Shown here: positions 2,526 through 16,669 of the stretch, piece after piece
Layout of the letters: every line of letters starts with the position of its first letter
Position numbering within the stretch: position 1 is the first letter of the stretch
Source of the DNA: a virus
Lineage: Duplodnaviria; Heunggongvirae; Uroviricota; Caudoviricetes
DNA length: 64,000 bases
Direction: 5' to 3' (one strand)
Virus record (IMG/VR): IMGVR_UViG_2724679237_000005
Coordinates: 1 to 64,000 of that record
Made by a program: the position numbers and the translations under genes
Notes under the pieces: generated by a model
What the model was told of the DNA's origin: nothing
Database searches by the model: none
Seen by the model: the letters and a program-made list of their open reading frames with translations, nothing else

Positions 2526-3205
2526 TACATACGCTCCTTGTAGTAGTCGACCAGCCACACCAGAGCCTCACCAGCGTTCTCCATTTCATTACCGGTGTTA
2601 ATAGCCTGCTCTTTGATGATGTTTTTTATGGTTTCTGCAACACGATCTGACGCATCGAAGGTTACTTTGAAGCGCATGGTCTGATGTTCCGCACCGACAC
2701 GCTCGGTTTTCTCTCGTTTGTCGGTATCGACAGGCTCATCACTACCACGAGACAACGCCTCCAGTGCTTCAAGGTCGATTGCCGCCTCTTTTGCTAAAAC
2801 CATCGAGATTTCGTCGTCATACGGGGCGATTTCAGACAGTTGATAGTCAAGTTCTGACTGAATTTCTTCAATGAAGCGTTGCAATGCGATTTGGTCGTCT
2901 TCACCGTATCGCTCGTTGTCCACCAGTGACATCTGTTTTGCCACGACATCGCTAATTTTGCCCACAGAAAGCACTGGAACCGTTGAAATTCCTTGCTCAA
3001 TAGCGGCACGCCAGCGATGTTCGCCGCCGAGGATTTCAAAAAATCCATCTTCAAGTTCACGAGCCAAAATTGGCTTAAAAAAGCCCAATTTTTCGATAGA
3101 ACCTTTCAGTTTTTCAAAATTCTGCGCACCAACCGAATTGGTGTTCCAGGTATTCGGGCGAAGGTTGGCAACATCAACCTGCAAAATCGTGATTTTTACA
3201 TCCAT
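2525..3205 (-). CDS. ParB/Srx-like nuclease-domain protein 2
   Basis: ATG at 3205 (MDVKITILQVDV); a GTG at 3223 is also possible. Motif ILGGEHRWRAAIEQGISTVPVLSV. The stop shares nt 2525 with the next ORF's start. Confidence 0.7.
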   Translation of the reverse strand: MDVKITILQVDVANLRPNTWNTNSVGAQNFEKLKGSIEKLGFFKPILARELEDGFFEILGGEHRWRAAIEQGISTVPVLSVGKISDVVAKQMSLVDNERYGEDDQIALQRFIEEIQSELDYQLSEIAPYDDEISMVLAKEAAIDLEALEALSRGSDEPVDTDKREKTERVGAEHQTMRFKVTFDASDRVAETIKNIIKEQAINTGNEMENAGEALVWLVDYYKERM

Positions 3206-3223
3206 TTTATTGCTACAATACAC

Positions 3224-3241
3224 TAAGTAATCACTTACTTA
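3224..3241. promoter_or_regulatory. B-type palindromic operator-like motif
   Basis: taagtaatcacttactta lies in the 82-bp divergent region between the ParB operon and the helicase gene. It belongs to the dispersed ATAGGTAAG-N2-4-CTTACCTAT family. Confidence 0.55.
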
Positions 3242-3287
3242 TTATAATAGCCAAATAACATACAAAAGGCACTAAGGAAAGAGGTTT

Positions 3288-4847
3288 ATGACTGTTCGGA
3301 TTGTATCTAACGCAGTAAATGCGCTTATTTCTGGCGCAGATGACAAGGTAAAGCAACTGGTGCAGCAAATGTTGAGCTACGAAGTCGAGACTGGCGACTG
3401 GAAGGGCACAAGCACGATGTTCAACTGGAGTAAAAACTCGTTCCCTGCTGGCTTTGCCAAGCCTGTAGCGGCGAACTTGAACAAGTCGGGCATCAAATGT
3501 GTTCATATCCGCAAAGACAAAGCCCCGGCGCTTGGAAAGCCAAATCCGGCGGTTAACCCATTCCCATACAATCCTGATTATGCATATCAGGATCAGGCTG
3601 TGGAAACACTAGTTCGCGAGGGAATGATGATTGCCCAGATCGCTACTGGTGGTGGGAAATCTAACGTTGCCTGCAAAGCAGCTGCACGTATCGGTCGAAT
3701 GACATTATTTTTAACAACCCGCTCTGTTCTGATGTTTCAAATGGCCGAAAACTTCCAGAGGTCCATCGACTACCGCGCCGAAAATGGCGAACCGTGGTTA
3801 AAAGACCAAAAGGTTGGAGTCATTGGCTCGGGTGAGTTCCAGGTATCACGACATATCAACGTCGCTACAGTTCAAACTCTTGCAAGTTTCCTCGAAGAAC
3901 CACCACGCGATGCAACACCAGATAAGAAAAGCTACCACCTCAAACGTCGGGAGTTGGTGAAACGCTTCCTTTCAAGTGTCTCTCTTCTTATTCTGGAAGA
4001 GGCGCATGAGTCTTCAGGCTCAAATTTCTATGACATCGCCAGATTATGTGTGAACGCAGACTATCGTCTGGCGCTTACAGCCACGCCGTTCATGAAGGAT
4101 TCGACGGAAGCCAACATGCGCCTGATGGCGGTGGCCGGGCGAATTGAAATTAAAGTCACAGAAAAGTACCTGATTGATCGAGGCATTCTGGCAAAGCCGT
4201 ACTTCCTTTATCATAAAGTTGCCTACAAGCCAGACGAGGCCAGAATCAAGGCCGAACTTGCCAACAAACACCTCAATTTTAGAGTTGGTATGAGCACCGC
4301 CTACCAAAAGGCTTATCAGTTGGGGATCGTGTATAATTTGGGACGTAACGAGGCCATAGTGCGCGAGGCATTGCTTTATAAGCAACATTCACTCAACTGC
4401 ATGACTCTGGTTCGTCTTAAACGCCACGGGCAAATCCTGATGGAGATGATGAAGGAGTCAGGTCTTAGAGTTGATTTCATCTATGGGGAATCTAACCAGA
4501 CGACAAGGCAAGCAAAGCTGAACAGTTTAGCGTCTGGCGAAATAGATGTTTTAATAGGCTCGACTATTCTGGATGTCGGTGTTGATGTGCCAAGTGTGGG
4601 CGCGGTCATTCTTGCTGGTGGTGGGAAAGCAGAAGTTGAAATGAGACAGCGTGTCGGTCGTGGCTTACGAGCCAAGAAGAATCAGGCAAACGTGTGTTTT
4701 ATCACTGATTTCATTGACATTAGCAACAAATACCTGTTGTCTCACTCTTATGAGCGAAAACACATCATCGACACCACACCTGGCTTTGCAGAAGGTGTAT
4801 TGCCTATTGATGGAGCATTCGATTTTGGAGTTCTGAAACGAGATTAG
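3288..4847 (+). CDS. superfamily-2 DEAD/DEAH-like helicase
   Basis: 519 aa. Motif I ATGGGKS, motif II LILEEAHE, motif III LTATP, motif VI RQRVGRGLR. SD aggaaagagg lies upstream of the ATG. Confidence 0.8.
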   Translation: MTVRIVSNAVNALISGADDKVKQLVQQMLSYEVETGDWKGTSTMFNWSKNSFPAGFAKPVAANLNKSGIKCVHIRKDKAPALGKPNPAVNPFPYNPDYAYQDQAVETLVREGMMIAQIATGGGKSNVACKAAARIGRMTLFLTTRSVLMFQMAENFQRSIDYRAENGEPWLKDQKVGVIGSGEFQVSRHINVATVQTLASFLEEPPRDATPDKKSYHLKRRELVKRFLSSVSLLILEEAHESSGSNFYDIARLCVNADYRLALTATPFMKDSTEANMRLMAVAGRIEIKVTEKYLIDRGILAKPYFLYHKVAYKPDEARIKAELANKHLNFRVGMSTAYQKAYQLGIVYNLGRNEAIVREALLYKQHSLNCMTLVRLKRHGQILMEMMKESGLRVDFIYGESNQTTRQAKLNSLASGEIDVLIGSTILDVGVDVPSVGAVILAGGGKAEVEMRQRVGRGLRAKKNQANVCFITDFIDISNKYLLSHSYERKHIIDTTPGFAEGVLPIDGAFDFGVLKRD

Positions 4848-9468: not shown

Positions 9469-9545
9469 GCCGTTTCCCGAAAAAATCCTGGCCGTTTCCC
9501 GTCGGCTCATGAATACGTTCCTCGCCGTCTCTGAAAATTTCCCTG
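9469..9545. repeat. 22-bp-periodic GCCGTTTCCC-type repeat array (minor copy)
   Basis: gccgtttcccg occurs at 9469 and 9491 (both perfect). Degenerate copies sit near 9513 (acgttcctcg) and 9535 (aatttccctg). All are in the same orientation as the array at 12600-12733. Confidence 0.5.
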
Positions 9546-10094: not shown

Positions 10095-10130
10095 AAATAA
10101 CAAATTGTTTTCTTGTTGGTGTTAATTATC
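10095..10130 (-). promoter_or_regulatory. A-type promoter/leader motif
   Basis: The plus strand reads aaataacaaattgttttcttgttggtgttaattatc. Palindromic core AACAAATTGTT. The minus strand carries a GATAAT -10-like hexamer. Confidence 0.55.
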
Positions 10131-10252
10131 GTTGTACGAATAAGGCGTCAAAGTGGAAAGTTGCGGTAGCCGGACGGGAACAGGTGGGTTTGTCGGTTGC
10201 CTGGAGGTAAGAGGTTGGTGTTTTTAGCCTGCGGGAAACAGGATGGTCATTT

Positions 10253-10276
10253 AAGGCCACCAATGCTGATGGCCTT
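10253..10276 (-). terminator. hairpin after the 10282-10425 ORF
   Basis: aaggcca-ccaatgctga-tggcctt. The U-tract is weak. Confidence 0.4.
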
Positions 10277-11905: not shown

Positions 11906-12235
11906 TTACGCGAATACCTCAAGAAACTCCTGAACGTCCCAATGCTGGACAAGGTGAAGATAGACCTTAGAAATCACGTCATTCTCGCTATCGCATGTGA
12001 AGTAGTACTTCTGGCTGCGGTTGTATGTGTCCACACAAAATTCGCTCATATCCATAAAGTCAGCATCATCACCCAGGTCGCTAATCATCAAAGCAGGTGC
12101 ATCATCACGAGTCATCAGCTCCAGCACCCATCTTGAATTAATCAGAGTGGAAGACCAACCTTCCAGCTCATAAAACTGGTCAAACTCTTTTTGAGTCAAT
12201 TTCTTAATTTGGTTGATGTCGATATGTGCAAACAT
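11906..12235 (-). CDS. hypothetical acidic protein
   Basis: ATG at 12235 (MFAHIDINQ) follows SD aagga. 109 aa, Asp/Glu-rich (DLGDDADFMDMSEF). Confidence 0.55.
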   Translation of the reverse strand: MFAHIDINQIKKLTQKEFDQFYELEGWSSTLINSRWVLELMTRDDAPALMISDLGDDADFMDMSEFCVDTYNRSQKYYFTCDSENDVISKVYLHLVQHWDVQEFLEVFA

Positions 12236-12247
12236 AAAGCAATCCTT

Positions 12248-12280
12248 AAACAAGATGTTTTCTTAATGGTGTTATTATCG
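12248..12280 (-). promoter_or_regulatory. A-type promoter/leader motif
   Basis: aaacaagatgttttcttaatggtgttattatcg. GATAAT on the minus strand. Confidence 0.5.
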
Positions 12281-12599
12281 CAATAACGCACAGGCGAAAA
12301 AAGGATTTTATTCCGGTGAATGTGGTTTTGGCAGTGAGTTTTCAGGTTCAGTACAGAGTACACTTTTTACATTATTCTGATTTAGTGGCCGAAGATGGCT
12401 GGTGGGCAGAATAATCATCTCCCCGAAAACCTACTGAAATCGATTGTGACCCGTTGGCTGTCTGGCACAATTACGCTGTAACTGGGCATTCAGAGGGAAT
12501 CCAGCGGTAAGTAGGTTCGCCTTCACGTGAGCGCCTCTCTTCTTCCCGAACATTGCAGGTGGCCAGCCGCAACTCTCCCTCTCGCTATACCGGTACGCC

Positions 12600-12733
12600 G
12601 CCGTTCCTGAACCGGCATCGAGCCTTTTCCCGAAATCCACACAGGCAACTCGACCGTTTCCCTGAAAATCCCCAGCCGTTCCCCGAAGGCAACCCAGCCG
12701 TTTCTGTAGCGGGATGCAGCCTTTTCCCTGTAT
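12600..12733. repeat. iteron-like direct-repeat array, six copies of GCCGTTTCCC(t)GAA
   Basis: Copies start at 12600, 12622, 12653, 12675, 12698 and 12720, giving spacings of 22, 31, 22, 23 and 22 bp. All are in one orientation. The ORF-track ORFs crossing the array have no SD or start context. Confidence 0.65.
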
Positions 12734-12790
12734 GGACCGAAGGCTGACCGTAGGAGTGTTACGGGGGATAAAATCAGGAGTTGAATAAAT

Positions 12791-12817
12791 ACGAAAAAGG
12801 AGGCGACACCCCTCCTT
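12791..12817 (-). terminator. rho-independent terminator ending the C/A-rich transcript
   Basis: On the minus strand, aaGGAGG-ggtgtcg-CCTCCtt is followed by TTTTCGT. Confidence 0.65.
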
Positions 12818-13650
12818 CCCTCCCCACTTATACATACCTTGCTTCTTCGCTATACATGTTGTGTTTTCTTCGTGTTTTATCTGTCTCAACCTCTCTATAG
12901 GCGTTAATGCTTACTCCTTCCAGAAACTTCTATACGGCGACTATTTCTGTTGGTGAATTGGGTGTGTTGTTTTCTCTGTCGGTGTATGTGGTTTCGTTCG
13001 TTTTGCGGTGGTTCTTCTATGGGGTGTTCTCGTCGTTTTGGTGATTGTTCTTCTCCGTGTATGGAGTAATGGCAGGTGGGCGATTCCTTTCGTTATTGTG
13101 TTTGAGTTGTTTGTCTGGAGTGCGTGAAGGGCTTTTGTAGTTATTCGTGTATTGGGTAATGGCGTTTCCCGTGATTGTTATGTTTCGTGTCTTTTGGGAT
13201 TGAGAGAAACCTTGCGGTTACAGGCTTCGTTGGGGTTTCAGCGGTTCAGGTGTTTCTTCGCTGTTTGGGTAATGGCGTGTCGTGGGTATCGCGCGTATGA
13301 ATGTTTTCGGATTGCCTGTGAAAGTTAGGTTGGTTGTCCGGTAGCCTGGGGAGAAGAGGTGGGTCTTTTCGGTAGCCTGCCATAAAGAGGTTGGTTGTTT
13401 TGGGTAATGGCATATGTGTTATTTAGTTGTTTTGTTATGCCTGAAAATAAGTTGTTTATATGGTTGTGTAACGCAACGGGAGCGATTTTGAGCGTGTGTT
13501 TTTGTTGGTAGTGTGTTGAGTCGTCTGTAGTGAAAATTGGACGCTGTGGAGCTGTCTGCTGCGTAGGATTACGAGTATAAGAAGTGATGTGTGAAAACGT
13601 CAATTTTTTAGACCAAATCGGGTGAAGGCGTTGACGTTTCGTTGATCTGT
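12818..13650 (-). ncRNA. candidate ~0.85-kb non-coding transcript, C/A-rich and G/U-poor
   Basis: It is bounded by an A-type motif (13651-13683) and the terminator at 12791-12817. The only ORF (13325-13603) has a TTG start and a low-complexity Q/T/P/N product. The plus strand is strikingly G+T-rich. Confidence 0.3.
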
Positions 13651-13683
13651 TATTCAGTTGTTTTCTTATTGGTATAAATAACT
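13651..13683 (-). promoter_or_regulatory. A-type promoter/leader motif (half-palindrome) with no downstream ORF
   Basis: tattcagttgttttcttattggtataaataact. It keeps the CCAATAAGAAAAC leader, but the left half of the core is degenerate. Confidence 0.4.
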
Positions 13684-13795
13684 ATAACCTATTGATATTT
13701 AAGGATGTGATTGCGGGTATGGAGGGAGGGTAGTGGCGATCAACGGATTCTTATAGAAAAGAATCAAATTGTGACCGCCATTATCAACGGTTTGG

Positions 13796-13981
13796 TTAGA
13801 TGAGATGGTCTAATTCATCATCTATCATGGCTTTGACGCTGGAGTCATTCACTCCATATTTATTTATGAGCTGTTTCAGCTCTGGCGAAAACTGAAGGTA
13901 GATATCGTGAGCGTTTTTCACTGTAGGTTCAACGCCACGCATTTCAAGCGCCTTTAGTAGATATGAGTCTTCTTTAAGCAT
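13796..13981 (-). CDS. hypothetical small protein
   Basis: 61-aa ORF downstream of the 14018-14317 ORF. Confidence 0.45.
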   Translation of the reverse strand: MLKEDSYLLKALEMRGVEPTVKNAHDIYLQFSPELKQLINKYGVNDSSVKAMIDDELDHLI

Positions 13982-14478: not shown

Positions 14479-16512
14479 TTACTTAACCTGGTGACCAGGT
14501 TTAGCACCAGCATCCGGGCTTAACAGGAAGATATCTTTCCCGCCGGGGCCAGCAGCCATCACCATGCCTTCAGAGATACCGAAGCGCATTTTACGCGGAG
14601 CCAGGTTAGCCACCATAATGGTGTGACGACCAATCAGTGCCTGTGGATCTGGATAAGCGGAACGGATGCCTGAGAAGACATTACGCTTTTCACCACCGAG
14701 ATCCAGCGTCAGGCGAAGCAGTTTGTCAGAACCTTCGACAAACTCCGCGTTTTCAATCAGCGCCACACGCAGGTCAACTTTGGCGAAGTCGTCAAAGGTG
14801 ATGGTTTCCTGAATCGGGTCGTCAGCCAGTGGGCCAGTTACCGGTGCAGCTGTGGCTTTCACTTCTTCTTTGGATGCTTCCACCAGTGCTTCCACCTGTT
14901 TCATATCGATACGGTTATACAGTGCCTTGAACGGATTCACTTTATGGCCCAGCAGCGGTTGCTGGATACCATCCCAGGTCAGTTCTGTATTCAGGAATGC
15001 TTCTGCACGTTCAGTCAGTTTCGGCAGTACCGGTTTCAGGTACGTCATCAGCACGCGGAACAGGTTAATGCCCATAGAGCAAATCGCCTGCAGATCGGCA
15101 TCGCGTCCTTCCTGCTTCGCCACCACCCACGGAGCCTGTTCATCGACATAGCGGTTAGCCAGATCAGCCAGCGCCATGATTTCACGAATCGCTTTACCAA
15201 ATTCGCGGCTTTCCCATGCTTCACCAATCACTTCAGCGGCATCAGTAAAGGTTTTGTACAGTTGCGGGTCAGCCAGTTCGCCTGCCAGCACACCGTCAAA
15301 ACGCTTATTGATAAAGCCCGCGTTACGGGACGCCAGATTCACCACTTTGTTCACGATATCGGCATTCACGCGCTGAACGAAATCCTCCAGGTTGAGATCG
15401 ATATCATCAATGCGCGAAGAGAGTTTCGCAGTGTAGTAGTAACGCAGGCTGTCAGCGTCAAAATGATTCAGCCAGGTGCTGGCTTTAATAAAGGTGCCGC
15501 GAGACTTGGACATCTTCGCACCGTTCACCGTCACATAGCCATGAACAAACAGGTTGGTCGGCTTGCGGAAGTTGCTGCCTTCCAGCATGGCAGGCCAGAA
15601 CAGGCTGTGGAAGTAAACGATATCTTTACCGATGAAGTGGTACAGCTCGGCGGTGGAATCTTTCTTCCAGTATTCATCGAAGCTTACGCTGTCGCCGCGC
15701 TTATCACACAGATTCTTGAAAGAGCCCATATAGCCAATCGGTGCGTCCAGCCAGACGTAGAAATATTTACCCGGCGCGTTCGGAATTTCAAAACCGAAGT
15801 AAGGTGCATCGCGGGAGATATCCCACTGTTGCAGACCAGATTCAAACCACTCCTGCATTTTGTTTGCCACCTGCTCCTGCAACGCACCGCTGCGGGTCCA
15901 TGCCTGCAACATTTCGCTGAAAGAGGGCAGATCAAAGAAGAAGTGTTCAGAATCACGCATTACCGGCGTAGCGCCAGAAACCACCGATTTCGGTTCGATC
16001 AATTCAGTCGGGCTATATGTTGCGCCGCAGACTTCACAGTTATCGCCATATTGATCAGGTGCTTTACATTTCGGGCAGGTGCCTTTCACAAAACGGTCCG
16101 GCAGGAACATGCCTTTTTCCGGGTCGTACAACTGAGAGATAGTGCGGTTTTTAATAAAACCGTTCTCTTTCAGGCGAGTATAGATAAGCTCAGACAACTG
16201 ACGGTTCTCTTCGCTGTGCGTCGAGTGATAGTTGTCATAGCTGATGTTAAAGCCTGCGAAATCAGTCTGGTGTTCCTGACTCATTTCGCCAATCATCTGC
16301 TCCGGTGTGATACCAAGTTGCTGTGCTTTCAGCATGATCGGCGTGCCGTGGGCATCGTCGGCACAGATGAAATTAACCTCGTGGCCGCGCATTCGTTGGT
16401 AACGAACCCAGACATCAGCCTGGATGTGCTCCAGCATATGGCCGAGGTGGATTGAGCCGTTAGCGTACGGCAGCGCGCACGTCACCAGAATTTTCTTCGC
16501 GACTTGGGTCAT
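14479..16512 (-). CDS. metG: methionine--tRNA ligase
   Basis: 677 aa from [25 protein letters not shown]. Carries the HLGH (HIGH-class) and KMSKS motifs, CPKC/CEVC zinc knuckles and a C-terminal Trbp111-like domain. It differs at only a handful of positions from E. coli MetG as I remember it. Confidence 0.97.
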
Positions 16513-16669
16513 AGTAGGCATTACTTCTTTGTAGTGAAAAGGGGCTTGATAGTAACAAAATGGCCTTATGTCTGCCATGTGATAACAGCATTTCTCATAA
16601 ATGATTAAATGTCGTAGCTGGAGTACACTACAAGGCGACAATTGCGCAAATTAAAATAAAGGAGACGGG

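Follow-up and report, generated by a model that had tools for sequence, protein, structure and literature searches.

A strand-skewed, non-coding region at the backbone/accessory junction of SSU5-type phage-plasmids

Rho-dependent terminators and their Rho-utilization (rut) sites, such as lambda tR1, trp t' and timm of phage P4, are C-rich, G-poor, unstructured, and untranslated at the RNA level. We describe a region whose minus-sense RNA would be alike in all of these respects. It lies at positions 12791-13683 of a 64,000-nucleotide stretch of viral DNA (IMG/VR record IMGVR_UViG_2724679237_000005, positions 1 to 64,000; hereafter the window). Together with its flanks, the region shares 97% identity with Escherichia phages PhiR41_1 and Cyrano (pLF82) and 71% with Salmonella phage SSU5, which therefore assigns the window, by sequence, to the SSU5/pHCM2-type phage-plasmids of Escherichia coli. 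Like Rho terminators, the region is found downstream of genes, and its upstream stem-loop could mark a trimmed 3' end. It differs from rut sites in being about 10 times longer, in being depleted in U as well, and in carrying conserved repeats and operator-like sites. We tentatively read it as a control region and Rho-loading barrier that acts in cis where the backbone meets the accessory genes; the dependence on Rho and the insulating role are the conjectural parts of this reading.

Other described systems resemble the region in different ways. CsrB/CsrC, Pseudomonas CrcZ, and the small RNA (sRNA) sponges SroC and AgvB are likewise non-coding and repeat a short motif in one orientation (here four to six times). 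However, the region has no detectable transcript in lysogens, no enrichment of GGA or (ARN)n, and no promoter or terminator conserved across the family. With lambda ori, P1 oriR/incA, P4 ori/crr, and F sopC, it shares phased direct repeats (spaced mostly by 22 bp, and ~30-bp units), inverted repeats, and non-coding DNA; as at iteron origins and accessory sites, repressor-controlled transcription is nearby. Unlike iteron origins, it lacks a DnaA box and an adjacent initiator, and its repeats do not resemble the RepB iterons of its own element. None of these origins and sites is known to show a 0.7-kb strand skew, and P1 has no such region. Like T4 oriF and oriG, the region is faced by a promoter, and a transcript could stay hybridized to its template; the phage described here also encodes a helicase named UvsW in one source, an RNase H-like protein, and RecA. 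T4 unwinding elements, however, are A+T-rich and ~100 bp long (PMC3016281), whereas the region is 45% G+C, 700 bp long, and skewed. The RfaH ops element is GGCGGTAGnnTG on the non-template strand of the leader before a long operon; here, only the core CGGTAGCCTG occurs, twice on the plus strand, with no plus-strand operon downstream.

Strand skew, coding status and conservation

Between 12.83 and 13.56 kb, the plus strand is 70-76% G+T, about 7 standard deviations (sd) off the rest of the window. Over 12791-13683, it comprises 17.1% A, 15.2% C, 28.8% G, and 38.9% T (G+T 0.676); in the core at 12940-13560, the figures are 14.2%, 12.4%, 33.0%, and 40.4% (G+T 0.734). In 300-nt windows, G+T averages 0.502 (sd 0.042) over the window and peaks at 0.76 (12951-13250). 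Elsewhere in the 64 kb it stays within 0.387-0.607 (sd 0.036), and P1, whose complete 94.8-kb genome spans 0.383-0.617, contains nothing comparable. GC skew reaches +0.51 and AT skew -0.59. The initial annotation of the window had reported an extreme plus-strand asymmetry, which these values bear out, and its example, the 60-mer at 12961-13020, does contain exactly 2 A and 8 C. It had also proposed that skew be compared across related elements. We found that the skew is kept in every lineage examined, Buttiauxella included, with G+T of 0.65-0.70 across 750-900 bp in full-length homologues and 0.66 across 550 bp in two Klebsiella fragments truncated by an insertion sequence (IS).

Read from the minus strand, the skewed core (12830-13560) specifies a C/A-rich, G/U-poor, weakly folding RNA (A 0.40, C 0.30, G 0.15, and U 0.15 at 12821-13566). 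Defining a C>G tract as a run in which C minus G is at least 15%, we found that the two longest on either strand of the 64 kb are both on this minus strand, at 13186-13616 (431 nt) and 13029-13227 (199 nt). Both exceed the C-rich, G-poor stretch of at least ~80 nt that characterizes rut sites. The predicted minus-sense RNA has a minimum free energy of -119.8 kcal/mol over 773 nt (-0.155 per nt), and shuffled sequences fold just as well (z -0.76); folding of both strands showed neither to be more stable than its shuffles. A search of the whole window against Rfam returned nothing at the gathering score (relaxing the limit to E=5 added a single match, at E=4), and folding of the alignment yielded a covariation term of +3, which gives no covariation support. 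A structured RNA was rejected on these folding scores, Rfam searches, and alignment fold. Composition, weak folding, absence of translation, and the longest C>G tracts support a rut-like nature for the putative minus-sense transcript, and to that extent the giant rut site suggested by the initial annotation is supported; the sponge role that it attached to this RNA is not, as discussed below.

The skew does not appear to be a by-product of a recent tandem array: TRF detects nothing, self-BLAST finds just motifs of 12-28 nt, and the sequence between these motifs is unique, yet as skewed as the motifs themselves. No Chi site or DnaA box occurs in the core. G4Hunter marks two short segments near or above its 1.2 threshold, in or adjoining the region.

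The region is non-coding. Its variable sites are split 23/37/34 among codon phases, against 22/8/10, 23/2/7, and 27/4/11 in neighboring genes, and its indels (1, 2, 4, 5, 8, 16, and 40 nt) would break any frame. Internal open reading frames (ORFs) match no family in Pfam or PHROG. Coding on either strand was ruled out on these three grounds. The only sizeable ORF (13325-13603) has a TTG start that coincides with the first three bases of a -35 box at 13603.

The sequence is nevertheless under real constraint, because its identity to SSU5 equals that of the flanking genes (68% over 12567-13794, against 67-69%) and its variability is below that of adjoining non-coding DNA. Among 23 distinct E. 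coli-lineage copies, variable sites amount to 0.13 per site in the core, 0.22 in adjoining non-coding DNA, and 0.08-0.12 in conserved neighbor genes. The substitution spectrum of this lineage is ordinary (66% transitions; G-T plus A-C exchanges 18%). In nested lineages (SSU5, Klebsiella, and E. asburiae), G/T to A/C changes occur at 0.14 per site and the reverse at 0.13; these polarized rates derive from per-lineage counts, and changes on the window's own branch cannot be polarized. Selection on composition itself was rejected, given the symmetric rates and the lack of excess G-T exchange within the lineage. Thus, the skew is, as far as these substitution patterns indicate, an old property that is held by sequence-level constraint and is not being renewed by composition selection or strand-biased mutation.

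The locus is also absent from existing descriptions. PGAP leaves 1.4-1.8 kb empty here in all RefSeq homologues examined, no annotated feature underlies the region among the E. coli matches listed, and we found no description or documented function in the literature on SSU5, pHCM2, and phage-plasmids. The initial annotation's remark that nothing in standard annotation explains the locus stands; the region remains unexplained by annotation or literature.

A possible Rho-loading barrier at the accessory-gene junction

The region sits at a boundary in gene content. Homology to Cyrano stops at ~13795, where backbone and accessory genes meet, and in annotated homologues variable accessory genes lie directly upstream. 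Flanking genes on both sides are on the minus strand in seven of seven homologues with retrieved annotation. The conserved right-hand block (13594-13795) ends at this boundary. CGTTGAY occurs in it five times, in either orientation, and these motifs make up two inverted repeats (13594-13603/13631-13639 and 13640-13647/13738-13745). In minus-sense RNA, the block is predicted to fold into a two-tier stem-loop of -13 to -20 kcal/mol. The stem-loop at the entry to the region is more stable in minus than in plus sense in 7/9 homologues; its G-U pairs would be A-C mismatches in the plus sense. IHF sites were considered for the right-hand block and rejected: they are present in the window, but the consensus is lost in the corresponding sequences of an alignment of homologues (A1).

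In the reading that we tentatively prefer, a polymerase leaving the accessory genes would first transcribe the conserved stem-loop at 13745-13790 and would then enter ~0.7 kb of untranslated RNA. Scarcity of G and U would leave the many C and A of this RNA with few pairing partners, and so make it an ideal loading site for Rho. Transcripts would be terminated within the tract and trimmed back to the stem-loop; E. coli-lineage copies would have an intrinsic terminator as a backstop. In this way, the early genes under repressor control (11906-12253 and beyond) would be insulated from accessory genes inserted upstream. Third in length among the minus-strand C>G tracts of the window is an intergenic spacer (10099-10276) that bears the same 30-bp units as the region, which points to a recurring design between transcription units.

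Published RNA sequencing (RNA-seq) of an E. coli LF82 lysogen, whose Cyrano element is 96.9% identical here, covers five conditions (PMC9928086, S1 table). Its floor is 2.32, that is, log2(5); counting was by featureCounts. The gene just upstream of the region, CYRAN_102, is at 5.6-9.2 log2 units, whereas CYRAN_103, which corresponds to window positions 13325-13681, is at the floor in LB (2.32/2.32) and at 2.7-4.3 in the other conditions. Early genes downstream of the region climb to 7-8 in some conditions (PMC9928086). While neighboring early genes rise 10- to 30-fold, CYRAN_103 barely changes. The step from CYRAN_102 (5.6-9.2) to CYRAN_103 (2.3-4.3) agrees with a barrier at this position. 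The transcript that the initial annotation predicted is therefore not seen over 13325-13681 in a lysogen, although this check comes from a relative and the strandedness of the data is not stated. An abundant sponge RNA in lysogens is excluded for LF82, because CYRAN_103 is at or near the floor while the upstream gene is expressed.

The initial annotation had the region bracketed by a promoter and a terminator. In the window itself, both are found, but neither is conserved family-wide. The intrinsic terminator was confirmed on the minus strand (12820-12794; -17.9 kcal/mol, z -3.5): at 12794-12820, the downstream end of the region, AGGAGG, a loop, and CCTCCT are followed by U5. Of 23 distinct E. 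coli-lineage copies, 19 have it unchanged. Its counterpart in Klebsiella forms only a weak fold (-14.7 kcal/mol, z -0.68), and a promoter/terminator scan of SSU5 finds no minus-strand terminator here; the terminator thus appears specific to the E. coli lineage. A sigma-70-like promoter that points into the core, TTGACG-18-TATACT, lies on the minus strand at 13603-13574 and agrees with the consensus at 10/12 positions. Its -35 box (13603) is invariant and preceded by an A-tract. The -10 box TATACT, however, is unique to the window among the 23 copies; the other 22 have TATACC, as do the -10-like boxes of Cyrano and SSU5, which lack the critical last T. Scans of the counterparts of 13574-13603 in SSU5, Klebsiella, and Cyrano return no promoter. 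The C-to-T change at 13574-13579 should strengthen the promoter facing the skewed region. The reading of these bases as a minus-strand promoter is ambiguous, because they can also fold in the plus sense, into a hairpin with a T-run behind it (13583-13612; window, -10.1 kcal/mol; SSU5, -16.0; Klebsiella, weak).

This sigma-70 match is better than the 'A-type' copy of a repeated early promoter/operator from which the initial annotation would have the region transcribed. That copy is real (13645-13683, minus strand), with its ACCAATAAGAAAACAAC part intact, but its second operator half is degenerate and its -35 box poor. A degenerate internal copy of the promoter/operator lies at 13414-13462 on the minus strand, with an operator-like palindrome, AAATAAGTTGTTT, at 13445-13457. 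Thus, in the window the locus looks like a discrete RNA gene, an appearance that family comparison does not support.

Several observations weigh against a Rho-loading barrier. Some 80 nt are enough for a rut site, and the region is ~700 nt long. Composition alone does not account for the sequence constraint, nor for the 26-nt motif (present four to six times), the 30-bp units (three times), and CGTTGAY (five times). The equal rates of G/T-A/C exchange give no sign of ongoing selection on composition. The RNA-seq floor already covers the first 350 nt, and transcripts may end before the C-rich tract is needed; moreover, these data are from a relative and not from the window element, with strandedness not stated. 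Promoter-like and operator elements that are conserved lack an explanation if they face a mere barrier. No single reading accounts for all features, and the sequence-specific motifs and the 700-bp length are the chief gaps.

Repeats, operators and rival explanations

The region and its surroundings carry four kinds of short repeat within 1.4 kb. A conserved motif of ~26 nt, TTCTCCGTGTATGGAGTAATGGC, has its first copy at 13051-13076 on the plus strand, among the best-conserved bins of alignment A1; further plus-strand copies lie at 13141-13166, 13254-13279, and 13396-13411. There are four copies in the window and six in SSU5-type relatives. The four copies of GGGTAATGGC listed in the initial annotation were recovered (exact at 13154, 13267, and 13402, and with one mismatch at 13064), as was its repeated block shared with 10165-10250. 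The latter resolves into tandem units of ~30 bp, T(A/T)GCCTG-N7-(G/T)AGGT(G/T)GGT, on the plus strand: three at 13312-13395, with GTAGCCTG cores that are invariant across genera, and three in a paralogous array at 10167-10247, in a different intergenic spacer of the same gene cluster. This pattern has seven matches in the window against 0.84 expected and is seen solely in SSU5-like contigs. Just past the terminator, six plus-strand repeats CC(G/T)TT(T/C)C(C/T) occupy 12601-12741, with start spacings of 22, 31, 22, 22, and 22 bp, and two more copies are at 9470 and 9492 (9470-9513). These repeats are conserved in SSU5-type relatives and are unlike the RepB iterons, TATGCTGYCAGCGGT. CGTTGAY, found five times in the right-hand block, is the fourth kind.

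The operator palindrome AAACAAnTTGTTT occurs at 13 sites in the window against 0.46 expected (10098, 10862, 11764, 12248, 13445, 14331, 14382, 25467, 26181, 26910, 37130, 55251, and 61288). Several copies lie directly downstream of -10 boxes, in promoters of small minus-strand genes; the next operator-controlled promoter (12303-12249, minus strand) is downstream of the CC(G/T)TT(T/C)C(C/T) repeats. In all likelihood, AAACAAnTTGTTT is the operator through which a master repressor acts at dispersed sites, as in P1. In addition, the 1.44 kb at 12200-13643 are free of GATC, which averages one per 236 bp over the window. The sole two nearby GATC sites are placed one in each arm of the inverted repeat CGTTGATC/GATCAACG (13640-13647 and 13738-13745).

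Such features could instead mark DNA to which phage proteins bind as an array; examples would be an origin for lytic replication, an accessory site for partition or silencing, or a hub of regulation. We consider this possible and nearly as likely as the Rho-barrier reading. In its favor are the four kinds of repeat (22-bp-spaced, six; ~30-bp, three; 26-nt, four to six; CGTTGAY, five), two sites like the master-repressor operator, constraint on sequence beyond composition, the silence of the region in the LF82 lysogen, and the absence of GATC. Helically phased direct repeats, as in iteron origins, are present (six at 12601-12727 and three of ~30 bp at 13312-13395). The C/A-rich strand, unstructured once unwound, might help helicase loading or R-loop priming from a repressor-controlled promoter; in T4 origins, a promoter is combined with an unwinding element at which an R-loop forms (PMC3016281). 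Phage-encoded proteins include a DnaB-like helicase, DnaE, ligase, RecA, and a helicase of the DEAD/DEAH-box type named UvsW in the Cyrano authors' table, and no lytic origin is annotated in the record examined. However, 12200-13900 contains no DnaA box (TTWTNCACA), and the repeats differ from the RepB iterons, which also rules them out as copy-control iterons of that replicon. No initiator gene is adjacent: RepB is 32 kb off and the helicase/primase module ~50 kb off, while the likely partition pair is situated elsewhere. T4-type unwinding elements are A+T-rich and ~100 bp long rather than a 700-bp G/T skew, and binding sites alone leave the equally skewed, unique sequence between motifs unexplained. 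A different proposal, closer to the initial annotation, is that the locus makes a trans-acting, C/A-rich RNA of 0.75 kb during lytic growth or entry. As a decoy, it would target a single-stranded-RNA-binding host factor, which could be Rho, Hfq together with G/U-rich sRNAs (GcvB, for example), or a toxin that cuts at ACA. We regard this as unlikely. The 10/12 promoter and strong terminator of the window, together with the invariant -35 box and the A-tract before it, fit such an RNA; nearby repressor operators would explain its silence in lysogens, and the repeated conserved motifs could be binding sites. Yet the strong -10 box is found only in this window (TATACC in 22/23 copies) and the terminator is not family-wide. 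The ARN repeats that the initial annotation offered as ligands for the distal face of Hfq are not enriched (runs of at least four ARN triplets, 1 observed against 1.7 expected), and ACA and AAC are merely slightly above composition. E. coli chromosomes have no sequence similar or complementary to the region, and CYRAN_103 stays almost flat in LF82 while early genes rise 10- to 30-fold. Furthermore, Rho translocates off RNA instead of being held. An abundant form of the Rho or Hfq sponge first suggested is not supported, given the near-floor signal of CYRAN_103 in the lysogen and the TATACC boxes of other copies. That a 0.75-kb RNA is made specifically upon induction or infection, either as a decoy for Rho or another single-stranded-RNA-binding protein or as an R-loop that starts lytic replication, is likewise improbable. 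Untranslated nascent RNA is described as prone to R-loops unless Rho removes it (PMC3977913, PMC11551753); therefore, the same property could serve an R-loop mechanism.

There are two further explanations. The region could be a relic that no longer has a function, such as a low-complexity gene in decay or the remains of an old repeat expansion, and is simply carried along. The symmetric G/T-A/C rates, which imply a skew that is slowly decaying and not renewed, agree with this, as does the lack of a documented function in the literature examined. We nonetheless find it quite improbable: the region aligns across genera at the identity of coding genes, its within-lineage variability is about half that of adjoining non-coding DNA, its motifs are invariant across genera, and 838 plasmids carry it. 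Least probable of all, and very unlikely in our view, is that plus-sense transcription is what matters, through a G/U-rich RNA or the exposed, displaced non-template strand, with C-to-T and A-to-G deamination having made the skew. Deamination of a single strand would be expected to deplete it of C and A, CGGTAGCCTG occurs twice on the plus strand like the core of the RfaH ops element, and the hairpin and T-run at 13583-13612 reach -10.1 kcal/mol in the window and -16.0 in SSU5. Against this, no plus-strand promoter was found in the core and no plus-strand gene lies downstream, ops-like matches do not exceed chance (3, with 1.3 expected), the hairpin is weak in Klebsiella, and folding the alignment in the plus sense gives a covariation term of +3. 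In addition, nested lineages show no ongoing strand-asymmetric substitution, and RNA-seq is at the floor.

Distribution and neighboring genes

In PLSDB, 838 plasmids from at least nine genera contain the region: 430 from Klebsiella, 224 from Escherichia, 90 from Enterobacter, 49 from Salmonella, 25 from Citrobacter, 9 from Cronobacter, and the remainder from others. Among complete E. coli genomes, 246/5426 (4.5%) carry it, on a plasmid every time and never on a chromosome. Relatives sought via neighboring proteins belong to the same family only, with at least 53% protein identity, and pattern scans for more distant relatives matched solely SSU5-like contigs. The products of neighboring genes fall in PHROGs of unknown function. 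The plasmid replicon of the window, a RepB-family initiator with its TATGCTGYCAGCGGT iterons, is located at 45.2-47.0 kb.

Recombination occurs inside the region, because the copy in E. coli plasmid a7 (L003; NZ_CP122497.1, 2501-3435) is a hybrid: its left part is of the SSU5 type and its right part of the window type, and the change falls near the third 30-bp unit. Large Klebsiella plasmids (L009 and L010; IncFIB/IncHI1B-type, 140-430 kb) contain a 750-bp piece at ~3205-3950, whose left end is cut by an IS and whose right-hand boundary is unchanged. A link to the plasmid leading region was rejected, as the match beside psiA in these plasmids is this IS-truncated fragment.

SSU5-type phage-plasmids are common in clinical Enterobacteriaceae, and resistance and accessory genes are found at the hotspot that the region borders. 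A conserved insulator or origin at this junction, if real, would explain how accessory genes are expressed without switching on lytic genes, and would give a handle to engineer or cure these elements. A decoy or R-loop RNA, if real, would be an RNA device based on composition, a kind for which no phage example has yet been described. The region is also a clean natural test case for the behavior in cells of RNA or DNA strands that can hardly pair.

The accessory genes of the window include metG and apbC/mrp (14479-17770). Here, metG is a full-length methionyl-tRNA synthetase gene, and the metG and apbC/mrp pair is also found in Cyrano, PhiR41_1, and p503025_100; the LF82 mrp homologue has been classed as a gene expressed in lysogeny (a 'moron'). 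Next to the region, an acidic ORF of 61 amino acids (13796-13981, minus strand; phrog_11467) has a weak, sub-threshold Pfam match to the T7 Gp5.9 RecBCD inhibitor (E 0.006; 17 bits, where the cut-off is 24.5). Among the accessory genes of the window, the minus strand also has an ORF of 1211 amino acids (18258-21893). In the LF82 data, by far the strongest signal of the element comes from the hypothetical Cyrano gene CYRAN_43, reported at 723-fold over prophage background in LB (PMC9928086, Table 1).

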